NCBI GenBank assembly: GCA_965207065.1
Contig: OZ242260.1
Span: 1,440,001 to 1,504,000 of the forward strand
Direction of reading: 5' to 3'
Source of the DNA: a bacterium
GTDB taxonomy: Bacteria > UBA8248
DNA length: 64,000 bases
Part shown: piece by piece, positions 35,639 through 59,458 of the stretch
How the letters are laid out: the number at the start of each line of letters is the position of its first letter
Position numbering within the stretch: position 1 is the stretch's first letter
The notes under the pieces: generated by a model
The model's database searches: none
What the model was told of the DNA's origin: nothing
The model's input: the letters and a program-made list of their open reading frames with translations, nothing else
Made by a program: the position numbers and the translations under genes

Positions 35639-36281
35639 TGTAGCTCCCCGGTGGTGCATATGTGACGCCCCATCAAAACACAAAACGAGGCCTGTGGGTA
35701 TCTTTCGCGCCATGTTTCGGAGGCTGTGCTATAAGTCATATTTTATCAAACGGTTGCGGTGGATTCCTGTTCGCTCCAAAGGCGCCGCGCCGCGCAGATT
35801 CCCCCAATTGCCGCTTCAGGCGCGCCGCCGGGGACGCGGTATCCTCGCAATGCTTCTGCGGGAGTGAGATTTTCGACCCCGCAGTTCCCCGCATTTCCCG
35901 TCACCGCCGGACCCCCGGGTCATGGCAGAATCTTCCTGCGCATCGCTTCTGCGGCGCCTTTTCCCAAGAAAATAAATTCCCATCAATTTATCGAATAACC
36001 CCGTGAATTTATCGAATTTTATCGATATATCCAGAATATAAAAATTAAATTATTGTTTTTAAGCTAGTTACAAATTCATTAAAATAATTGTAATCAAAAC
36101 GCAAGCTGGTTCATTACAACTACAGCGTATGCGGGCGGGTCCGTGTCGGGTTAACCATGGTAAGCGTTCGGCGGGAGGGTGATGGATGTCAACAAAGCAG
36201 GGTTCCAAACCAATTGCACCGTACTAAATCAACAAATGCTTCCGTTGTCAGAGACAATCTCACCGCTTAACCGAACGCTTA

Positions 36282-38310
36282 TTGCGCCAGGCTAAGCCCT
36301 GGAGAGGAGGATGCCATGACCTGAAACCTCTCGTAGCGACCCAGCGGGTTCGACTCCCGCCCGGCAAAGGCGAAGCCGGCCAGCCGGAAGCGAGTCTTGC
36401 ATGGCGTGCGGCAACGCCCGTCGTGAAGCGTAGACAGCAGGTGACGAAGCGGCGGGGTAAGCCTCGAAATCGGTGAATCGACGACGCCTTCACTGTTAAG
36501 CGTGTGGGGGCAGCACCGGAAGCGCCGCCATCGGCGAGGCGCAACGGGTCGTCCGGGGTCGTGGACCGGCGCAAAGTTACGGGGATGGGTCGCCAGGGAA
36601 CCTGGGAGATCCTGCTCTTGCCCGTGGGCAAGAATGCTGGAAAGGGGACGGCCAGCGTGAACAATCCAGACCCCGGTCCGTCGCCGGACCTGCACGGCGG
36701 CGGGAGCGCCCCATGGCGGACACGAACCCGGCAGGCGCCCGCGGAACCGGCTGGCGAAAACAATAAGCCGAAGGACATGCGAGGGCAGGAAGTCGTAGCG
36801 CCCTGATAGTACCGCTGAAGGCGGGGAACCGTGGCCACCGGGACCCGCTGGAGGGAAGCGGGGCGTCATCTGTACAGAGCCACTGATGGGAAACGCTGGA
36901 GGAAACTCTGAGTTCCACGAACACGTACACGAAACAGCAGTGGATAGCCAAACAGGCGAGGGAGCATCCGGAGCGGGTGTTCACGTCCCTGCACCACCTC
37001 ATCGACGGCGAGTGGATGCGCGAAGCGTATCGCCGCACGCGCAAGGATGGGGCGAGGGGTATCGACGGCGTGAGCGCCGCCGACTACGAGAAGGACCTGG
37101 AGGTGAATCTTGACGACCTCCTGAGCCGGATGAAGTCGGGTCGATACTTTGCGCCGCCGGTGCGTCGGCACTACATCCCGAAGGCGGACGGCACGAAACG
37201 ACCGCTCGGCATTCCGACGTTCGAAGACAAGGTGGCGCAGCGGGCAATCCTGATGCTGCTGGAGCCGATTTACGAGACGGACTTCCTGACGTGCTCGTAC
37301 GGCTTCCGGCCCGGACGGTCGGCTCACGATGCCCTGGCCGCACTTCGCACGGGCATCATCGAGCAGCGCCAACGGTGGGTGATTGACGCCGATATCTCGA
37401 GGTACTTCGACTCGATATCGCACACCCACCTGCGGTCATTCCTCGACCTGCGGATCAAGGACGGCGTCGTAAGGCGCATGATTGACAAATGGCTGAAAGC
37501 GGGGGTTCTCGAAGAGGGAACCGTGCACAGGCCGGTCACCGGCACTCCCCAAGGCGGGGTAATCTCGCCGATGCTCTCCAACATCTTCCTGCACCATGTG
37601 CTGGATAAGTGGTTCGAGGAAGTGGCGAGGCCGCGCTTGCGCGGAAACTGCCAGCTGGTGCGATTCGCCGACGACTTTGTCGTCGCCCTGGAAGACCGTC
37701 ACAGCGGCAAGCGGTTGCTTGACCTGCTGGACAAACGTCTCGGCCGATTCGGACTCACGCTCCATGAGGCCAAGACGCGCTATGTGGACTTCCGCCGGAG
37801 GCGTCCCTACGGGCGTCACTGGATGGCGTCGACCACGACGTTCGACTTCCTCGGCTTCACCCACGTCTGGGGGCGGTCGATGCAAGGCAAGGACGTCGTT
37901 CGCCAAATCACGGCGAAAGGCCGCTTCGCCCGCGCGCTGAAATCGGTGCACGAATGGTGCAAGAAAAACCGGCACCTGCCGATTAAGGCGCAGCATGACC
38001 ATCTCGTCCGGGCGATACGAGGCCACTGCGCATATTACGGTCTGAGGGGGAACGGCAAACGTCTTCGGTGGTTCCGCTACCAGGTGGCTCGCACGTGGCG
38101 GAAGTGGCTTGCGCGCCGCAACCGCCTGCGTCGCATGAACCGGGACTGGATGAACGCGCTCCTCATGCGATACCCCCTTCCATATGTCTCTTACGCGCGC
38201 TCACGGCAAAGCTTCCTGAGCGAACCTGTCGGGTGAGGAACCGAGTGCGTCAATCGCGCACGCTCGGGTCTGTGGGGGGCGGGGCGCAGAAATGCCCCCG
38301 CCTACCCGGC
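36282..38310 (+). mobile_element. Group II intron, full length
   Basis: 5' TTGCGCC; domain V at about 38238-38270; domain VI ending ..CTACCCGGC; encloses an RT ORF; loop TAAGCGT (36497-36503) is complementary to the 5' exon end ACGCTTA. Confidence 0.9.
36896..38236 (+). CDS. ltrA: Group II intron reverse transcriptase/maturase, no HNH endonuclease domain
   Basis: IPK.DG..RPLGIP, SYGFRPGRS, GTPQGGVISP, RFADD, FDFLGF. Frame is open from CTG 36896 (GTG 36977 in the ORF track). Confidence 0.93.
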   Translation: MEETLSSTNTYTKQQWIAKQAREHPERVFTSLHHLIDGEWMREAYRRTRKDGARGIDGVSAADYEKDLEVNLDDLLSRMKSGRYFAPPVRRHYIPKADGTKRPLGIPTFEDKVAQRAILMLLEPIYETDFLTCSYGFRPGRSAHDALAALRTGIIEQRQRWVIDADISRYFDSISHTHLRSFLDLRIKDGVVRRMIDKWLKAGVLEEGTVHRPVTGTPQGGVISPMLSNIFLHHVLDKWFEEVARPRLRGNCQLVRFADDFVVALEDRHSGKRLLDLLDKRLGRFGLTLHEAKTRYVDFRRRRPYGRHWMASTTTFDFLGFTHVWGRSMQGKDVVRQITAKGRFARALKSVHEWCKKNRHLPIKAQHDHLVRAIRGHCAYYGLRGNGKRLRWFRYQVARTWRKWLARRNRLRRMNRDWMNALLMRYPLPYVSYARSRQSFLSEPVG

Positions 38311-38320
38311 CTAACCATGG

Positions 38321-39496
38321 GTAACCATTCGTTCGTAGGGTGATGGGGGCTGTTTCAGCGGTTGAGGACTTGCTTCCAGTTGTTGCGGAGGGGCTTTAGC
38401 CAGATGTCCTTTCTGGGTTTGTCGTGGCGATTGTACCTGTCGTATCGTCCGCGTCCCTGTGTGGTTCCCACATGGATCCATCCCGATGCCCTGTAGACGG
38501 CGCCGGTGTAGCGGGGCGTCTCGACGAAGGTTTCGATGAGAACGGGGGTCGTGTTGTAGCGTTCGGTCCAGTCTTTGGGCAGGCGCCTGCGGACGATGGC
38601 GAGGAGGTGCGAGCCGAGGTTGGGGATCTTGATCCATGGCAGGATGAGGAACCTCGGGTTGTCGACCACGAGGGGGAGGTTCTTCTCGCGCAGCCCGGGC
38701 GTCCAGCCGATGAAGGCATCGCGCGGAGCGAGCTTCCACGCGGCGGTGGAGAAGCCGAGCATGGCGAGGGGCCTGCCGTCGCGGTCGTGGACGGCGTAGC
38801 GCATCTGGGCGCCGACGAGGGTCTTGTAGCCGAGGTAATGGTAGCGGACGACGAACTCGTTCCAGAGCCTGCCCTCGCGGGTTCCGCGCACGACGACGCG
38901 CATATCGAGCGTGCGTACCTCATCGAGGGTCTCAGGCGCCGGGATGAGGGGCGCTTCGGTGTCGGGTCCGAAGACGATCGGCCCGGGCCGGTTCTGGCGC
39001 CACTTCGGAGGCGGCAGCGTGATCAGGCCGTCCTTGTGCATGGCGAGCATGGTCACCCGGGCCATCATGTCCTTGAGTCCGCCGTCGGGTTTGAACCAGC
39101 CGATGCGGCGGCAGAACTCCTTCGATAGCGCATGGCGGTTGAGCGCAGGAGGACCGGCGATCAGTTCGCGCAGAAGCGCCATCTCTTCCGTCGTGAAGTC
39201 GCGCCCGTAGTAGCGGCACTCGATCACGGCGTCATCCCGGCGCCGTGAGGGCGCGCCTGCGCTCGGCGCTCATCGACCAGGGCAGCCACGCGGAGAGGTC
39301 CCCGGGCGCCCGGCCGCCGATCTGCGCGCAGGCGGTGAGCCATGCATCGAGCCAGCGGAGCGGGTCGATGCCGTTCGAGGAGAGTGTGCCGAGGACCGAG
39401 TACATCATTGCCGTGAACCCGGCGCCGGCCTCGCTGTCGGAGCCGAACGAGAGGCGCCTGCCGATCACGGGACCCCGAAGCGCGCGTTCGGCGGCG
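38321..39496 (-). mobile_element. 3' half of an IS66-like element (transposase C-terminus + DUF4338 gene + GTAA terminal repeat)
   Basis: End GTAACCATTCG..GGTGATGG at 38321; transposase tail NAAERALRGPVIGRRLSFGS..LPW ends at 39232. Confidence 0.8.
38355..39227 (-). CDS. DUF4338 (DruA-like domain) protein
   Basis: YHYLGY..LVG..MRY, RD.FIGW, N.RFLILPW....NLGSH.L, ETFV, G..YRA..W..VG.T.GRGR.D. Confidence 0.85.
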   Translation of the reverse strand: MIECRYYGRDFTTEEMALLRELIAGPPALNRHALSKEFCRRIGWFKPDGGLKDMMARVTMLAMHKDGLITLPPPKWRQNRPGPIVFGPDTEAPLIPAPETLDEVRTLDMRVVVRGTREGRLWNEFVVRYHYLGYKTLVGAQMRYAVHDRDGRPLAMLGFSTAAWKLAPRDAFIGWTPGLREKNLPLVVDNPRFLILPWIKIPNLGSHLLAIVRRRLPKDWTERYNTTPVLIETFVETPRYTGAVYRASGWIHVGTTQGRGRYDRYNRHDKPRKDIWLKPLRNNWKQVLNR

Positions 39497-39606
39497 TTAT
39501 GCCGATATCGGCATAACCAATCTAATGCCGCTAACCGGATTATGCCGCGTTCGTCTTCGAACCCCTTGATTCCGCTCACTTGCGCTCTCGCTTTGTCGGC
39601 ATAATC
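39497..39606. repeat. RIT left inverted repeat with palindrome TTATGCCGATATCGGCATAA
   Basis: Near-perfect reverse complement of 42899-43008; repeated T(T/A)ATGCCG motifs. Confidence 0.9.
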
Positions 39607-40600
39607 ACAGCCTCTCCAGATAGTCGAGCAAGGCGTCGGATGGCCGGTATCGACCGGGCGGAACGTCTAGCGGCCTGGTTCTTTCCATTGCCTTTTCCTT
39701 CACACGGAGGTCGGCGTGCAGGTAGACGCGGGTGGTCTCGACCGATTCGTGACCGAGCCAGAGCGCGATGACGGTGCAACCGACGCCTCGATACAGAAGC
39801 TCCATCGCCGCGGTGTGGCGCAGGGAGTGGGGGCTCACGCGCTTGCCCTCGAGGGTCGGACACCCTCGGGAGGCCAGCGCCGCGTATTTCCTGACGATGC
39901 GCTCGACGGCGTCACGGCTGAGAGGCCTGTTGCGGTTGCTCGGGAACAGCGGCTGATCGTCCGTACCGCCCCGCTCGGCCAGCCACGCGCGCAGGAGCGC
40001 CACCGTGTCTGCCCTGAGCGGGGTCGAGCGCTCCTTTCTTCCCTTGCCGCGGCACCGCACGTGGGCGCCCGCGCCGAGAACGACGTCGCCGCGGCGCAGG
40101 GCGATCAGCTCCGAGACCCTGACTCCGGTCTGCACGCACAGATGGAGAAGGGTCCTGTCCCGCCGTCCGTACCAGGTCGAGGGGTCGGGCGCGGCGAGGA
40201 GCGCCTCGGTCTGCTCGCGGTTCAGGTAGTCGAGTACGCGCTTCTCGCTGCGCTTCGCGGGAAGGGCGAGCACCCGCTGGCAATGGTGCAGGAGTTGCGG
40301 CTCGCTGATGGCGACGTACCGGAAGAACGAGCGGATCGCGGCCAGTCTTGTGTTGCGGCTGCGGGCGCTGTTGCCCCGCGAGGCCTCCACGAAGTCGAGG
40401 AAGCGCCCGACGAGGTCGGCATCGATATCGCTCACCAGCAGATCGGTCGGCCGGCGGCCGAGACGCTCCCCGGCGAAGTTCAGCATCAGCCGGAAGGTGT
40501 CCCGGTAGCTCGCTACCGTATTGACGCTGGCCGCCATCTGGCCGAGGAGGCGTTCGGTGAAGAAGCGTTGCACGAAGGCCGGAAGCGGATGCGTTGTCAT
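39605..40600 (-). CDS. Tyrosine recombinase RitC
   Basis: TG.RVSE, GKGRKER, SPHSLRHT.A, LGH, Y. Confidence 0.9.
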   Translation of the reverse strand: MTTHPLPAFVQRFFTERLLGQMAASVNTVASYRDTFRLMLNFAGERLGRRPTDLLVSDIDADLVGRFLDFVEASRGNSARSRNTRLAAIRSFFRYVAISEPQLLHHCQRVLALPAKRSEKRVLDYLNREQTEALLAAPDPSTWYGRRDRTLLHLCVQTGVRVSELIALRRGDVVLGAGAHVRCRGKGRKERSTPLRADTVALLRAWLAERGGTDDQPLFPSNRNRPLSRDAVERIVRKYAALASRGCPTLEGKRVSPHSLRHTAAMELLYRGVGCTVIALWLGHESVETTRVYLHADLRVKEKAMERTRPLDVPPGRYRPSDALLDYLERL

Positions 40601-41539
40601 GACGCTTCCCCCTCTGTGAAGGAACGCTCGCCGCGCTCCGTGGCCAGGCGCAGGAGTTCGGGCACCGCCTCGATGTACCAGTAGGTTCCCGCGGGGTCCG
40701 TATGACCGAGCCAGGTGCTGAGCTTGTACATCTCCCGGTCGGGGTCGCATCCCGAGCGGAACCACTCGAGGATCGTCATCGAGGCCATGGTGTGGCGCAG
40801 GTCGTGGATCCGGGGACCGCGCCCGCGCCCTGCCTGTCGCTTTCGAAGGCCGACGTCCTTGCCGACGACGGCAAAGGCGTGTCCGGCGATCTTGATGTTG
40901 AGCCGGCGCTCGTTCTCGCCGACGAAGAACGCCTCCGACACTCTCCCGAGGATGCGGTCACGCCGGGCGCGATAGGCGCGCAGACGCTCCGCTGTGCACT
41001 CCGTGAAGGGAACGAAGCGGCTCATTCCTTTCTTGTCTCCCCTGACGCGCAGGACGGCCGCGTCGGTATCGACGTCTGTGTCATCGAGCCCGACCGCTTC
41101 TCCGATCCGCAGTCCGGTGACCGCGACCAGGCCGAACAGGGTCGCATAGGTGGCGCCGCGCAATCCCCGCCGCGACTTCAATCGTGTGGCTGCTCTCACG
41201 ATTGCGGCGATCTCCTCTTCGGTATAGATGTAGGGCCGCAGGCGCCGTTGCCGGTGCGGGATCAGGCCCTTGGGCGGGACTTCCGTCCGCGGGTCAATGA
41301 CCCTGGAGCCAGAACGCGAAGCCGCGCACCACCGAGAGGCGGATCGCCCAGGTGTGCGTGGAGCCCGCGCCGAAGCGGTTTTTCCAGCGTAGGAACAGAT
41401 CGGCGGTGATCCGTTCATCGCCCTCGGCATCGGCGAAGGTGGCGAACGGACGCAGGATGAGGCCGCCCGAGGCGGGGTTGCCGCCATAGCGGCGGCGCTC
41501 GGCGAGGTAGTGGTCGAGCAATTCCGTGAACGTTCTCAT
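40597..41539 (-). pseudogene. Tyrosine recombinase RitB, frameshifted near 41300
   Basis: N-terminus MRTFTELLDHYL..WLQG continues in another frame as IDPRTEVPP..PYIY..TGLRIGEA..HDLRHT..LGH..TYWY. Confidence 0.85.
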
Positions 41540-42750
41540 CGGGCGCCTCCCTGTAGCGGCCATGGCCTGGCGAGCGGACGCAGGGCCTCGACGTCGTAGC
41601 GGGCGTAAATCGTGGTCGTGGCGCGTCTGCGGTGCCGAAGGACGTCGCCGATATCGTCGAGCGACGCGCCCCGGTCCAGCATGTCGACGGCGAGCGAGTG
41701 GCGCAGCAGGTGGCCTCGGACCTCGCCCCTGGGCGGGCGCAGCTCCGTTTTCTCGAAGGCCTGGCGGAGAATGCGCCGGACGACCAGGGATGAGCCGAAC
41801 GGCCGGTAAGGGGCCTTGGCGGTGACGAACAGGTGGCGCGCGCCGCCCGCGCGCGCGCCCTGAAGATAGCCGGCGATCGCCTCTCCCACGTCCACGGGAA
41901 TCGGCATGCACTCATGCTGTTCGCCCTTGCCGCGGACCAGTATCTCTCCGGCCCGCCAGTCGATGTCCTCGAGCCGGATCGCAATCACCTCCTGCGCGCG
42001 AAGGCCGAGCCGGGCCATCAGCAGCACGATGGCGTAGTCGCGGCGGCCGGTCCCGGCGCGGCCGCGGACTGCGTCGATGAGGCGCCGGACCTCACCGGGT
42101 TCCAGATGGCGCGCCAGGGCGCCGGCGCGCGGCCCGGAGACCCTCGGAACGCAACTTCTCAGGTCGCGCCGGATACTGCCCGTTGCGAACAGGAAGCCGA
42201 ACATGCTGCGCAGGCACATCGCCTTGTAGACGCGGTTCGTCCTGCCGGTTGCCGGATCGGGCGAATCGAGGAAAGCCGCGACGTCGTCGCGCGTGATGGC
42301 GTTCAAGTCACCGGGTTGCGTACCGAACCGGAAGGTCAGGAATCGCCTCAGCACATTCTGGCGAATCGAGACGGTCTTCGGGGCGAGTCCGCGTTGCCGG
42401 CGAAGCCAGTCTCCGTACGCCAGGCTCAGTTCATCGAGCGGCCCGGGTTCCCGTGGCGCCGTTTGACGGGGCGCCGCCGCCACGCCGGCATCGATCAGAT
42501 GCCCGATGAACCGCGCGATGAGTCGCTCCCGCTGCCGTGTCACGGCAAGTTCAACGCAGACGTCCACGGAAGCGGGGTCGCGATCATGGACCCGTGCGCA
42601 GAACCAGTCGACGGCGCACCGGTAATCATCGACCGTCTTGGCGGCGTAACCGAGGCTGCGTAACTCTGCCAGGAACGCGTCGCGATGAGGCGCCAGCCGG
42701 CCGGGGCCGCCCGGCGCCGAAGATGTTTCACGATTGAGGCTGGAAGACAT
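41536..42750 (-). CDS. Tyrosine recombinase RitA
   Basis: RDYA, LGLRA.E, GKG, HLLRHSLA, LRH, TT.IYA. Confidence 0.9.
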   Translation of the reverse strand: MSSSLNRETSSAPGGPGRLAPHRDAFLAELRSLGYAAKTVDDYRCAVDWFCARVHDRDPASVDVCVELAVTRQRERLIARFIGHLIDAGVAAAPRQTAPREPGPLDELSLAYGDWLRRQRGLAPKTVSIRQNVLRRFLTFRFGTQPGDLNAITRDDVAAFLDSPDPATGRTNRVYKAMCLRSMFGFLFATGSIRRDLRSCVPRVSGPRAGALARHLEPGEVRRLIDAVRGRAGTGRRDYAIVLLMARLGLRAQEVIAIRLEDIDWRAGEILVRGKGEQHECMPIPVDVGEAIAGYLQGARAGGARHLFVTAKAPYRPFGSSLVVRRILRQAFEKTELRPPRGEVRGHLLRHSLAVDMLDRGASLDDIGDVLRHRRRATTTIYARYDVEALRPLARPWPLQGGAR

Positions 42751-42898
42751 GTGCCGCTCCTTTCCCTGTAAGGTGGATGGAGCGAACGAGCATCGGCCAA
42801 TCCGGCGTCCGCTTCCAGATCGTCGATTGGGAAATCGCCCGGGTATCGCCGTGCGAGCGAACTCTCCGCGTGCTAAAAACAGGTTCAGGGATGCTCCC

Positions 42899-43008
42899 GA
42901 TTATGCCGACAAAGCGAGAGCGCAAGTGAGCGGAATCAAGGGGTTCGAAGACGAACGCGGCATAATCCGGTTAGCGGCATTAATGGCATTATGCCGATAT
43001 CGGCATAA
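42899..43008. repeat. RIT right inverted repeat
   Basis: Mirror of 39497-39606; palindrome at 42989-43008. Confidence 0.9.
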
Positions 43009-44186
43009 CGCCAGGGAACGGGCGATCCGCGGGCCGGCCATCGGGCGCCGATTGAGCTTCGGTTCCAACAGCGAGGACGGCGCGAAGTTCACCGCCACCA
43101 TGTACTCCGTCATCGGCACGCTCTCGATGAACGGCATCGACGTGCCGCGCTGGCTGGAGGCATGGTTGGACGCCTGCGCGAAGAATGGCGGCAAACCGCC
43201 GGACGACCTGTCCCCTTGGCTGCCCTGGACGATGAGCGACGCGCGCAGGCGCAAGTTCACGGCGCAGGAATGACCGGCGCCATCGAGTGCCGGTACCACG
43301 GGCGCGACTTCACCACCGATGAGATGGCGCTGCTGCGCGCCCTGATCGCCGCCGATCCACAGCCGACCCGCGCCGCCCTGTCCAGAGAGTTCTGCCGGCG
43401 TATCGGCTGGCTCAAGCCCGACGGCGGCCTCAAGGACATGATGGCCAAGGTGACCATGCTCGCCATGCACCGCGACGGCGTGATCGCCCTGCCGCCGCCG
43501 AGGGGCAGGCAGGGCCGGCCCAAGCCCATCGTCTTCGGGCCTGACACCGAGCAGCCGCTGTTCCCCGCGCCGAGGACACTCGACGAGGTTCGCCCGCTCG
43601 ACTTCCGCACCGTCGTGCGCAATACCCGGGAAGGCAGGCTCTGGAACGAGTTCGTCGCCCGCTACCACTACCTCGGCTACAAACGCCTGGTCGGCGCCCA
43701 GATGCGCTACGCCGTCCATGACCGAAACGGCTGGCCCGTCGCCATGCTCGGCTTCTCCACCGCCGCATGGAAGCTCGCCCCGCGCGACCGCTTCATCGGA
43801 TGGACGCCCGAGATGCGCGAGAAGAATCTGCTGCTGGTGGTGGACAACCCGCGCTTCCTGATCCTGCCATGGATCAAGATCCCCAACCTCGGCTCCCACC
43901 TCCTCGCCATCGTGCGCCGTCGCCTGCCCCGCGACTGGACCGCGCGCTAAAACGTCACCCCGGTGATCATCGAGACTTTCGTCGAGACCCCGCGCTACAC
44001 CGGCGCGGTCTACCGCGCCTCGGGCTGGACCCGCGTCGGGACCACCCAGGGGCGCGGGCGCTACGACACCCACATGAAGCGGGCGGAGCCCAGGAAGGAC
44101 ATCTGGCTGCGGCCGCTGAGACGAGACTGGAAGCGAACGCTCAATCGCTGAAATCACCATCCATCACCTGAGAACGGAAGCATTAC
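43009..44186 (+). mobile_element. 3' half of a second, divergent IS66-like element (transposase C-terminus + DUF4338 + terminal repeat)
   Basis: NARERAIRGPAIGRRLSFGS..LPW ends at 43273; end CCATCACC..CATTAC at 44161-44186. Confidence 0.8.
43270..44151 (+). pseudogene. DUF4338 protein with in-frame TAA at 43948-43950
   Basis: Colinear with 38355-39227; TAA sits where the paralog has Tyr. Confidence 0.85.
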
Positions 44187-57661: not shown

Positions 57662-58570
57662 CTATACCACCCCGATTGCAAGAACAAACAATATCAAACT
57701 ACTTCTATCAAATTAGTTGCGTGACATCCAGACACCCTCCGTCAATGATATATATAGTCTGCTCCACATGGCAGGCAGCTATTACCTAGAGAAGGCAAAC
57801 CGGTTGCGGACATATATCCGGTCTCTTGATGAGAGCGCTTCCACTTCCGGTCCCTGATGGATATCGCACACACCGGCCTCAAAAACCGAGCAGTCTTGAT
57901 GACCTTGACACTGACTAAGCTTTGGACGTGTCGGGTCAATCTGCCTGCTATCACTGAGATTATTTTTTTCTCATTCCAGAATTTATTCGCCACTTTGCGC
58001 CTATGCGTTGACGCTCTAATGGACCAAAAGACGGCGACCAATTCATCGTCTCGAACTGCGCTCTCATATTTGAAGAACCCGGCAAGTTCTTCATCGCAAG
58101 TTTTGCAACGGGGAAGGTTCGTCGCTTTGTCCTGGGAAATGATGCTCTTTGTAATTACGTCATTCAAATTCGATGATCAGACTATTTTGCTCTTCATTCA
58201 GGTGAAGTCCTAAACTTGCTGGAAACTATGGAGGGGGAGCGCTAGGCGAATTGGTGACAGTGCAGCCGGTGAGAGTCCGGCAGGAGGGAGAAGGCCAGCC
58301 ACCACCTCCACCCCGAGTCATGGGCCGCCACTCGCGAGGGTGGGGGCCAAGCGTTGACAGGGGCGCCGTGCGAGCGGGGCTATTGAGCACCGAAAGAATT
58401 ATTGTCCGGGATGTCGAGGTTTTCCCCTCAGCCGAAGACAGCATCCGACCCGCCGATATGGCGAGGCGTGCCGGAATCCCGCGGTGTCAAAGAACGCACG
58501 TACGCCCTCTTCCGGGACCTGGGAGGTCTCCATGTCACCCCGCCGTCGTTGCGGGGTCGCAGAGGGAAGG

Positions 58571-59458
58571 GTGCAGCGAGACTAGCTGCTGTGCTTGCGG
58601 GTGAAAGTCCCGCCGGCGCAATTCTCAGTTTGGCGCCGTAGTCATATCCGGCAGGCATTCGGGGCGACCCGGTGACCTGATAGCCCGGAAGTAAAAGCCT
58701 CGGGAGGCCGGGGAACCTTCGGGAACTCCAGGCCTGGTCAGCCCGCTGAGGCGAGCGAACAGGAGGGCCGTAGCGAGAGCGAACGGACTAGACGCCGAAA
58801 ACTGCGACCCGCGTGAAGCTGATTCGAGCGGAGTTATCGGAGTTGCCAAGGGTTTCTCCTTCCTACCTGATGGCCAGTGTCGATACGGAAGAACTGAGGC
58901 GCACGTATCGGAGCTCCCGGCGTAAGCTGAAGGCGGCAATCCTGGAAAGTACAGCAGTGAAAGTCCGGAAGGTGTGGAGGTTGGACAGGATGACCCTGTG
59001 AATGTCGAAGACCGTCTCTATAACCGGGGGAGCCGGGAAGTGAGACGGAGACCCCCACACTGGCGGATGAGGTCGCCAAGCGATGAAGGGTGGGACAACA
59101 TAACCCACCCGGAGCGAGGACCTCTGGGCACAGGCGGCGGAGCCGTTATGAGCATCCCGCACACAGAGGCGGGTTAACCGCTCTCTCAAATGGTGACGCC
59201 TGAGGACGGAGTAAACGTTGGACTCGCCGAGGGGTATGATGGGGTCGGTCTTAACCCCGGCGGTTCCGCGGAAGGCTCCGCTCCAAACTGGGAGGTGCCT
59301 GTTGCTTGAAGCCGTACCCGGGAAAACCGGACGTACGGAATTTCAGGGGGGACGCTGGAAACGTGGTCTATGGTGGAATTGCGCACCCACCCGCAATCGA
59401 AAGAGCGGGGTCGGACAAGCCTCCACCTAAGGATGCGCGCGCCAGTGTCCTACCCGAC
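58571..59458 (+). ncRNA. ORF-less group II intron nested in the outer intron (twintron)
   Basis: 5' GTGCAG; domain V GAAGCCGTAC..GTACGGAATTT; long domain VI ending CTACCCGAC; EBS1 CCTTCC and EBS2 CTGCGACCC match the upstream flank. Confidence 0.85.

Follow-up and report, generated by a model that had tools for sequence, protein, structure and literature searches.

An endonuclease-less group II intron that appears to home to the tips of IS66-family terminal inverted repeats

Homing of group II introns to the ends of transposons is already known. RmInt2, an endonuclease-less intron of bacterial class D from Sinorhizobium meliloti GR4, is described, in the portions of the reports consulted, as having all its copies in the left or right inverted repeats of the insertion sequence (IS) ISRm17 (PMC4615759, PMC5894124), and its homing into an ISRm17 inverted repeat was shown experimentally (PMC4615759). 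ISRm17 is listed in the ISDol1 group of ISNCY (PMC10194956). The intron presented here adds another case. It is located in a 64,000-nt window, the whole stretch of DNA analyzed, of contig OZ242260.1 from a bacterium of the GTDB lineage UBA8248; the genome consists of this single 4.48 Mb contig, and coordinates are positions in the window unless given as genome positions. The block from 36282 to 38310 is a group II intron, and we consider it very probable that it is a mobile, endonuclease-less element that homes to the tips of IS66-family terminal repeats by retrohoming. A first-pass annotation of the sequence had proposed that the intron is tuned to the conserved IS66 end, and both the covariation of its exon-binding site 1 (EBS1) with the target and its repeated presence at IS66 tips, here and in other genomes, bear this out. 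Full-text literature searches, which did not cover subscription journals, found no description of a group II intron located in IS66 terminal repeats.

The features of the locus are listed in Table 1. When the intron is removed and 36160-36281 is joined to 38311, a 123-bp element with a 12-bp perfect inverted repeat (GTAAGCGTTCGG / CCGAACGCTTAC) is restored between the two copies of an 8-bp direct repeat. The first-pass annotation had described this 123-bp element and its perfect 8-bp repeat, and the coordinates hold to the base; its placement of the insertion between the last two bases of the right repeat is likewise correct, with A immediately before 36282 and C at 38311. Finding an exact 8-bp duplication at the predicted boundaries as well as a 12-bp perfect inverted repeat far exceeds what chance would produce. 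The restored element, MITE-A, is short and non-coding, has IS-like terminal repeats and is flanked by a duplication of the same length as that of the IS, as expected of a miniature inverted-repeat transposable element (MITE). It occurs once in this genome, and intron-free relatives that are 77-84% identical to it are found in genomes G005 and G012. Every empty end of this repeat family reads GTAA... or ...TTAC, so the inserted segment is unambiguous, from its TTGCG start to its CGGC end. Contigs of sequencing run X1 span both junctions (36019-36308 and 38282-38460) with 0 differences; this run may be the source sample and not independent support. Among the listed sequencing-run contigs there was none with the joint of 36281 to 38311, which weighs neither for nor against ligated exons or an empty allele. 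Contigs from RNA libraries, with at least 90% likeness, cover the ribozyme and the open reading frame (ORF); contigs cannot show transcription.

The identity of the target was established through a full-length partner. The sole IS66-type transposase gene of this genome is in a 3332-bp element (genome positions 2289409-2292739 plus the final C) that has 26-bp perfect terminal repeats and the 8-bp duplication AATGCTCC. Its 770-aa transposase scores 270 bits with NF033517 (cut-off 180) and 182 bits with PF03050, which upholds the earlier assignment of the target to IS66. The left end of MITE-A (36160-36185) resembles an IS66 terminal repeat, and by inspection 23 of its 26 bases match the repeat of this full-length element, which identifies the window element as a MITE of an IS66-family variant. 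Members of the IS66 family generate 8-bp target duplications and have terminal repeats starting with GTAA. The family duplications found here (AATGCTCC, TAACCATG, TTGCGCCG and GGGCATTG) are all of 8 bp, and the repeats begin with GTAA(C/G). Canonical IS66 has the accessory genes tnpA and tnpB. No match to PF05717 (TnpB_IS66) was found in this genome, and the 3332-bp element also encodes a DruA-like/DUF4338 gene (genome positions 2289446-2290315); with a DruA-like gene in place of TnpB, the element is a variant of the IS66 family and not canonical IS66. The DruA-like gene (PF14236/DUF4338) is the conserved second gene of an IS66 subgroup, always between the transposase gene and a terminal repeat, and its products are 74-81% identical in metagenome-assembled genomes (MAGs) with other phylum labels. 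Nothing relevant to DUF4338 in combination with a transposase was found in the full-text literature, again outside subscription journals.

Intron-free MITE or IS66 elements with these ends, on whose existence the first-pass interpretation depended, were found both in this genome and in the congener G012. The congener has two tandem intron-free relatives of MITE-A, and a second 123-bp MITE family has four copies in this genome, three of them intron-free and one of those three with the duplication TTGCGCCG. By our own count, the intron occupies about 5 of 21 recognizable IS66-type ends in this genome. A 237-bp IS66-type MITE (genome positions 939144-939380) with the duplication GGGCATTG lies inside a remnant of intron domain VI of about 40 nt, so insertion between the two element types runs both ways. 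This MITE, together with the frequent location of IS66-type ends 8-9 bp from intron 3' ends, would suit the opposite order of events, in which the IS66-type elements are the ones that insert, beside or within introns, and the intron itself does not favor IS ends. We find that explanation very improbable at the sites studied here. The intron splits the last two bases of the repeat and its removal restores a perfect repeat; the duplication surrounds the composite, not the intron; the loops of the intron can pair with the repeat and change in concert with it, as described below; and IS66-type ends abut at 8 bp also where there is no intron. The spacing of IS66-type ends deserves mention in its own right. 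An end is often 8-9 bp from the end of another element at sites with the intron (window positions 38311-38325; copy c2a, genome positions 2289399-2289412; B2/B3; L080), and 8-bp spacing is also seen in the intron-free tandem MITE pair of G012 (L130). This suggests that IS66-type elements may prefer to insert right beside one another's ends.

Target recognition by group II introns can be read from the pairing of exon-binding sites (EBS) with intron-binding sites (IBS). The loop TAAGCGT (36497-36503) had been reported in the first-pass annotation as the exact complement of ACGCTTA (36275-36281), the end of the 5' flank. This complementarity holds, with seven of seven EBS1-IBS1 positions paired in the window copy, and TAAGCGT is the hairpin loop of distal domain I in the Rfam D1 alignment. 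Covariation was assessed in 85 distinct copies, drawn from the present genome, from genomes related to it and from a wider collection, which yielded 63 loop/site pairs, 56 of them scorable. The mean EBS1-flank pairing of the 56 pairs was 5.93 of 7, versus 3.69 (standard deviation 0.21) for shuffled pairs, and 0 of 2000 shuffles reached the observed value. Sub-clades with wholly different loops have flanks that fit them (GGUCAA/UUGACC, CGACAA/UUGUCG and UGCAAG/CUUGCA), which settles the TAAGCGT loop as EBS1. Position 4 of the loop is G in the window copy, where the site has C at -4, and U in the other six copies of this genome. For EBS2, inspection of the relatives revealed the compensatory pairs UCAG/CUGA, CCC/GGG and UGACA/UGUCA. 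The EBS3 candidate fits the +1 base in 41 of 42 copies (G in 31/31 with +1 C, U in 10/10 with +1 A); this putative assignment is weak, as it rests on two varying clades only. IBS2, IBS1 and the +1 base together are the last 13 bases of the terminal repeat. Since nearly the whole recognized site is inside the transposon, any full copy, at either end, and any MITE offers a possible landing site irrespective of the DNA around it.

A total of 21 intron matches were found in the genome, seven of them with intact 5' ends; the window copy is the only one that is full-length and uninterrupted. There are also ORF-less copies, three of 809 nt and two of 790 nt. Five of the seven copies (the window copy, c2a, c4, c5 and c8) are at tips of IS66-type repeats of the form ...GAAC-N-N-(T/A)TA|C, where the bar marks the insertion point. 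Insertions are found at both IS ends, with c4 on the transposase side of the full-length element and c2a on the DruA-like side. The remaining two differ, c6 interrupting a unique 440-codon ORF at a site that matches EBS1 at six of seven positions and c7 being in another repeat family. The reverse transcriptase (RT) ORF of c2a is split by a 2.2-kb insert (genome positions 2286421-2288644) that encodes a large serine recombinase in the same orientation, with the domains Resolvase, Recombinase and Zn_ribbon_recom. A matching Rhizobium plasmid has its RT likewise in two pieces around a 'recombinase family protein'. Short 3' fragments of the intron, 33-106 nt long, are also present in this genome, and we infer that they are what aborted reverse transcription would be expected to leave. 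The deletion joint of the 809-nt copies (36961 to 38217) was also found in a contig from a run of another organism, so the 809-nt ORF-less form is itself widespread.

Searches were extended to 41 genomes, this one included. The intron is present in ten of them: this genome, 8 of 22 congeners and 1 of 7 genomes from a different family in the same class. The related genomes provided 16 distinct junctions with a readable 5' flank, nearly all of which, by reading, are IS66-type tips. Among their 15 distinct junctions ending in TA, the loose repeat motif was found at 13 and the strict motif at 10; taken with the five of seven in this genome, these sites show that most other copies are at IS66-type ends and not at unrelated ones, as the first-pass annotation had implied. 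A wider collection came from a protein-based scan of species-representative genomes, in which 483 relatives were found and the best 80 loci of the 483 were examined. Its 33 distinct TA-ending junctions include 14 with the strict motif and 12 where a gene for an IS66 transposase or a DruA-like protein (identity of 40% or more) is no more than 1.8 kb upstream; one or the other was found at 17. In the sub-clades with other EBS1 loops, 0 of 28 junctions fit the repeat motif. The motif-bearing records are labeled Alphaproteobacteria, Gammaproteobacteria and Thermodesulfobacteriota, and their intron proteins are 81-97% identical to that of the window copy, which suggests that the intron lineage has spread horizontally in recent times. 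Two further observations were made in this collection. Members of a distant sub-clade of about 70% identity (Bradyrhizobium and others) are beside weak matches to IS66 transposases on the opposite strand, and an alphaproteobacterial MAG (L061, 1806-5860) has two intron copies head to tail, zero bases apart, at an IS66 tip.

An association of this kind could also arise if the intron were cargo, that is, if the transposase still used the outer C and hitch-hiking contributed more than repeated homing. Two facts can be cited for it. In both informative cases, the window and the full-length IS, the 8-bp duplications enclose element and intron together, an arrangement that fits either order of insertion; and in one MAG (L061-L063) identical 40-nt 5' flanks are followed by differing 3' flanks. 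The rest of the evidence leaves this explanation improbable, since the same element families are found with and without the intron, the full-length, 809-nt and 790-nt forms are in different repeat variants, and EBS1 follows the repeat variant. The ectopic copy c6, located outside any IS, represents movement independent of a transposase, and an inserted intron puts the subterminal repeat 0.8-2 kb away from the outer C. Repeated homing to the repeat tips is the reading that we retain.

Table 1. Features of the intron locus and its flanks (positions in the 64,000-nt window)
Feature	Position	Strand	Remarks
Left 8-bp target-site duplication, TAACCATG	36152-36159		identical to 38312-38319
MITE-A body (intron 5' exon), IS66-derived	36160-36281	+	123 bp including 38311
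IBS2, ACCGA	36270-36274	+	positions -12 to -8
IBS1, ACGCTTA	36275-36281	+	positions -7 to -1, within right terminal repeat
Group II intron	36282-38310	+	2029 nt; boundaries UUGCG...CGGC
EBS2, UCGGU	36470-36474	+	internal loop after conserved CUCGAAAU; complementary to 36270-36274
EBS1, UAAGCGU	36497-36503	+	domain I hairpin loop
Candidate EBS3, G	36561	+	intron position 280; proposed partner of +1 C
RT/maturase ORF	36896-38236	+	446 codons counted from CTG
Domains V and VI	38236-38310	+	domain V GAACCG, consensus GAGCCG
Last base (C) of MITE-A right terminal repeat	38311	+	+1 / IBS3 position
Right 8-bp target-site duplication, TAACCATG	38312-38319		
Neighboring IS66 fragment	38321-39606	-	terminal repeat from 38321, DruA-like gene 38355-39227, about 380 bp more

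The ribozyme was identified with Rfam models. The region 36351-36568 matches RF02005, the model of domains I-IV, with 123.7 bits against a gathering score of 49. The domain V/VI model RF00029 matches at full length at 38236-38310, ending exactly at the 3' boundary, with 35.3 bits and an E value of 1.2e-4. The branch context of domain VI, CCUACCC, aligns with that model, whose score here is below gathering. Within the clade, the 5' end is UUGCG or UAGCG, the 3' end ...CGG(C/A) and the domain V motif GAACCG; the base opposite the middle A of the domain V triad varies among G, C, A and U. The encoded protein scores 364.4 bits with TIGR04416 (cut-off 300) over residues 41-408 of 446 and 126 bits with RVT_1. 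No further Pfam domain was found in it, and only about 38 residues follow the TIGR04416 match, which leaves the protein without an endonuclease domain. The first standard start codon of the ORF is a GTG at 36977, from which the product would have 419 aa; at the codon where the conserved N-terminus begins, ATG or TTG is found in some relatives. A promoter and terminator scan of 35700-36950 found no promoter-like site on the + strand, a result that says nothing either way on expression.

Several observations weigh against a working intron that finds IS66 ends by base pairing. The sequences in the covariation set are kin, and the shuffle test overstates their independence and does not give a clean probability. 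Pairing is imperfect at several sites, for example five of seven positions in copy c7 and four of seven in the relative L029. A single-sequence fold of 36458-36566 puts part of EBS1 in a stem, with a z-score of -0.83 relative to shuffled sequences. Thus the proposal of the first-pass annotation that the loop is EBS1 was supported by the Rfam D1 alignment and the flank covariation and found no support in the fold; as the fold is no better than those of shuffles, the assignment rests on the alignment and the covariation, not on energy. The 35.3 bits of domains V and VI are under the RF00029 gathering score of 40, and for 16 of the wider collection's 33 TA-ending junctions an IS66 end could not be demonstrated. 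The consensus boundaries of group II introns are given, in the part of the source consulted, as 5'-GUGYG...AY-3' (PMC7923331). Those of the present intron, UUGCG...GC, depart from them, as does its domain V triad, AAC where the consensus has AGC. Finally, ATG, GTG and TTG are absent at the conserved N-terminus of the protein, where the codon is CTG (36896).

The last of these observations raise the question of whether the window copy is a dead relic, which homed formerly and now neither splices nor moves nor produces a protein. Its U for G at position 1, GC for AY at the 3' end and AAC for AGC in domain V would be in keeping with decay, as would the lack of a standard start codon at the conserved N-terminus and of a promoter-like + strand site in the scanned region, and the sole other ORF-bearing copy of the genome is the one broken by the 2.2-kb insert. 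We nevertheless judge a relic unlikely. U1, the GC 3' end and the AAC triad are common to nearly every relative examined, and the CTG to most of the clade, including genomes in which many almost identical copies occupy different sites, a pattern that implies recent movement. The 446-codon frame is open and scores above the TIGR04416 equivalog cut-off, and the window EBS1 fits its own site at all seven positions. We read the unusual boundaries and domain V triad as a lineage variant and not as decay, in a clade that shows many recent insertions.

The locus can be interpreted by the following pathway of retrohoming to the repeat tip. The 123-bp MITE would have inserted itself earlier, with its 8-bp duplication. 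The homing site would then be the outward-reading tip of an IS66-family terminal inverted repeat, recognized by base pairing: EBS1 would pair with the 7 nt that end at the insertion point, EBS2 with the preceding 5 nt and the candidate EBS3 with the remaining base of the repeat. The excised intron RNA would be reverse-spliced into the DNA and subsequently copied into DNA. By likeness to other endonuclease-less introns, cDNA synthesis would probably be primed at replication forks. The GC skew of the genome places the origin at about 1.24 Mb and the terminus at about 3.54 Mb, and six of the seven copies are oriented with the target strand as the lagging-strand template. With only seven copies this bias is a hint; the same orientation is stated to be favored by RmInt1-type introns in the consulted part of one report (PMC5894124). 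A primer derived from a transposase nick at the neighboring IS66 end, 8 bp downstream (+9/+10), was considered and rejected as the general route: most 3' flanks are without such a neighbor, and IS66-type ends abut at 8 bp without an intron (L130). The protein of the window copy would be expected to act in trans on the 809-nt and 790-nt ORF-less copies.

What the insertion means for the host transposon is less certain. The first-pass annotation had proposed that the intron probably immobilizes its host IS or MITE; whether an intron-occupied end is no longer usable by the transposase is, in our estimation, an evenly balanced matter. A stronger proposal is that the intron is an obligate hyperparasite of the DruA-carrying IS66 subgroup, in which EBS1 position 4 would track the repeat variants, the occupied end would be disabled, the spread of the transposon would be limited and the intron would follow it horizontally into MAGs of other phyla. 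We put this forward tentatively and regard it as rather doubtful in its full form.

The IS66 fragment at 38321-39606 shares 92% identity with positions 1-1180 of the full-length IS. It is one of two inverted 1286-bp IS66 fragments, each with a repeat and a DruA-like gene and 80-82% alike, that delimit the region 38321-44186. Between them are three tandem tyrosine recombinase genes (39605-40765, 40597-41487 and 41536-42750), all on the - strand, a layout that resembles a 'recombinase in trio' element between IS66 arms. A short dispersed repeat with more than 80 genomic matches of 70-97% identity is located at about 35880-36040, just upstream of MITE-A. The window includes a second, different group II intron from 58272-58778 onward, which scores 169.3 bits with RF02005 and 57.6 bits with RF02003.

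These results are of use beyond the locus itself. The intron and its targets form a natural key-and-lock series: G, U, A and C are all found at position 4 of EBS1, with corresponding changes in the fifth base of the repeat. Should the intron prevent transposition, an IS family would have a natural brake in it. Its U1, penultimate G and domain V AAC, present in a recently moving clade, are useful natural variants for ribozyme studies. For annotation, IS66-type ends or MITEs that end in ...TTA and are followed by 0.8-2 kb of GC-rich non-coding DNA are possible intron sites.

Comparison with described introns points to a position near class E. The window RT is 45% identical (residues 2-373) to a disrupted RT on plasmid pRmeGR4b of S. 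meliloti GR4, and the locus on that plasmid matches the same domain I model, RF02005, with 145 bits. A disrupted class E intron, S.me.I4, is mentioned on pRmeGR4b in the consulted part of one report (PMC5894124), and this is presumably the same locus. From the identity to the pRmeGR4b protein and the shared domain I model, the present intron is tentatively considered class E-like. The pRmeGR4b intron (1650-1990 of L137) starts just downstream of the stop codon that ends a transposase-like gene, IS256-like by our own reading. Homing near an IS end may be commoner in the class E-like group. The excess of ORF-less copies has a parallel in Thermosynechococcus, where ORF-less introns mobilized in trans reportedly far outnumber the protein-coding copies in one genome; here ORF-less copies likewise outnumber coding ones, in two deletion forms of 809 and 790 nt.

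The class C (IIC) introns, as far as the consulted text describes them, are also endonuclease-less and have as their home a recurring non-coding DNA motif and not a gene (PMC4424553). Their target is the stem-loop of a terminator or attC with short IBS1/IBS3 pairings, whereas the present intron would use about 12 nt of linear pairing through EBS1 and EBS2, and it has a different domain I model. Boundaries of the form 5'-UUGCG..GU-3' have one earlier report, in the intron UHB.I2 (CL1/IIB1; PMC7923331). UHB.I2 and the present intron share a non-consensus U at position 1 and a 3' end without AY. They differ in that UHB.I2, according to the same text, has another protein class and an integron context and its boundaries were inferred without empty sites, whereas those of the present intron are fixed by empty sites.

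The closest parallel remains RmInt2. Both introns are endonuclease-less, both have their sites in the inverted repeats of an IS, with two sites per IS on opposite strands, and both use EBS/IBS recognition. The hosts are different, an ISNCY element for RmInt2 and IS66 here, and so are the introns, RmInt2 being of class D and the present one probably E-like. Insertion one base from the IS terminus, MITE hosts and ORF-less derivatives characterize the present intron; in the comparison with the consulted portions of the RmInt2 reports, the tip position is stated for the present intron only. The RmInt2/ISRm17 case, as those portions present it, comes from one strain, whereas the present lineage is in many genomes with several phylum labels. 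The intron described here is therefore a second, independent and much wider case of a retroelement homing to transposon ends, after RmInt2/ISRm17.

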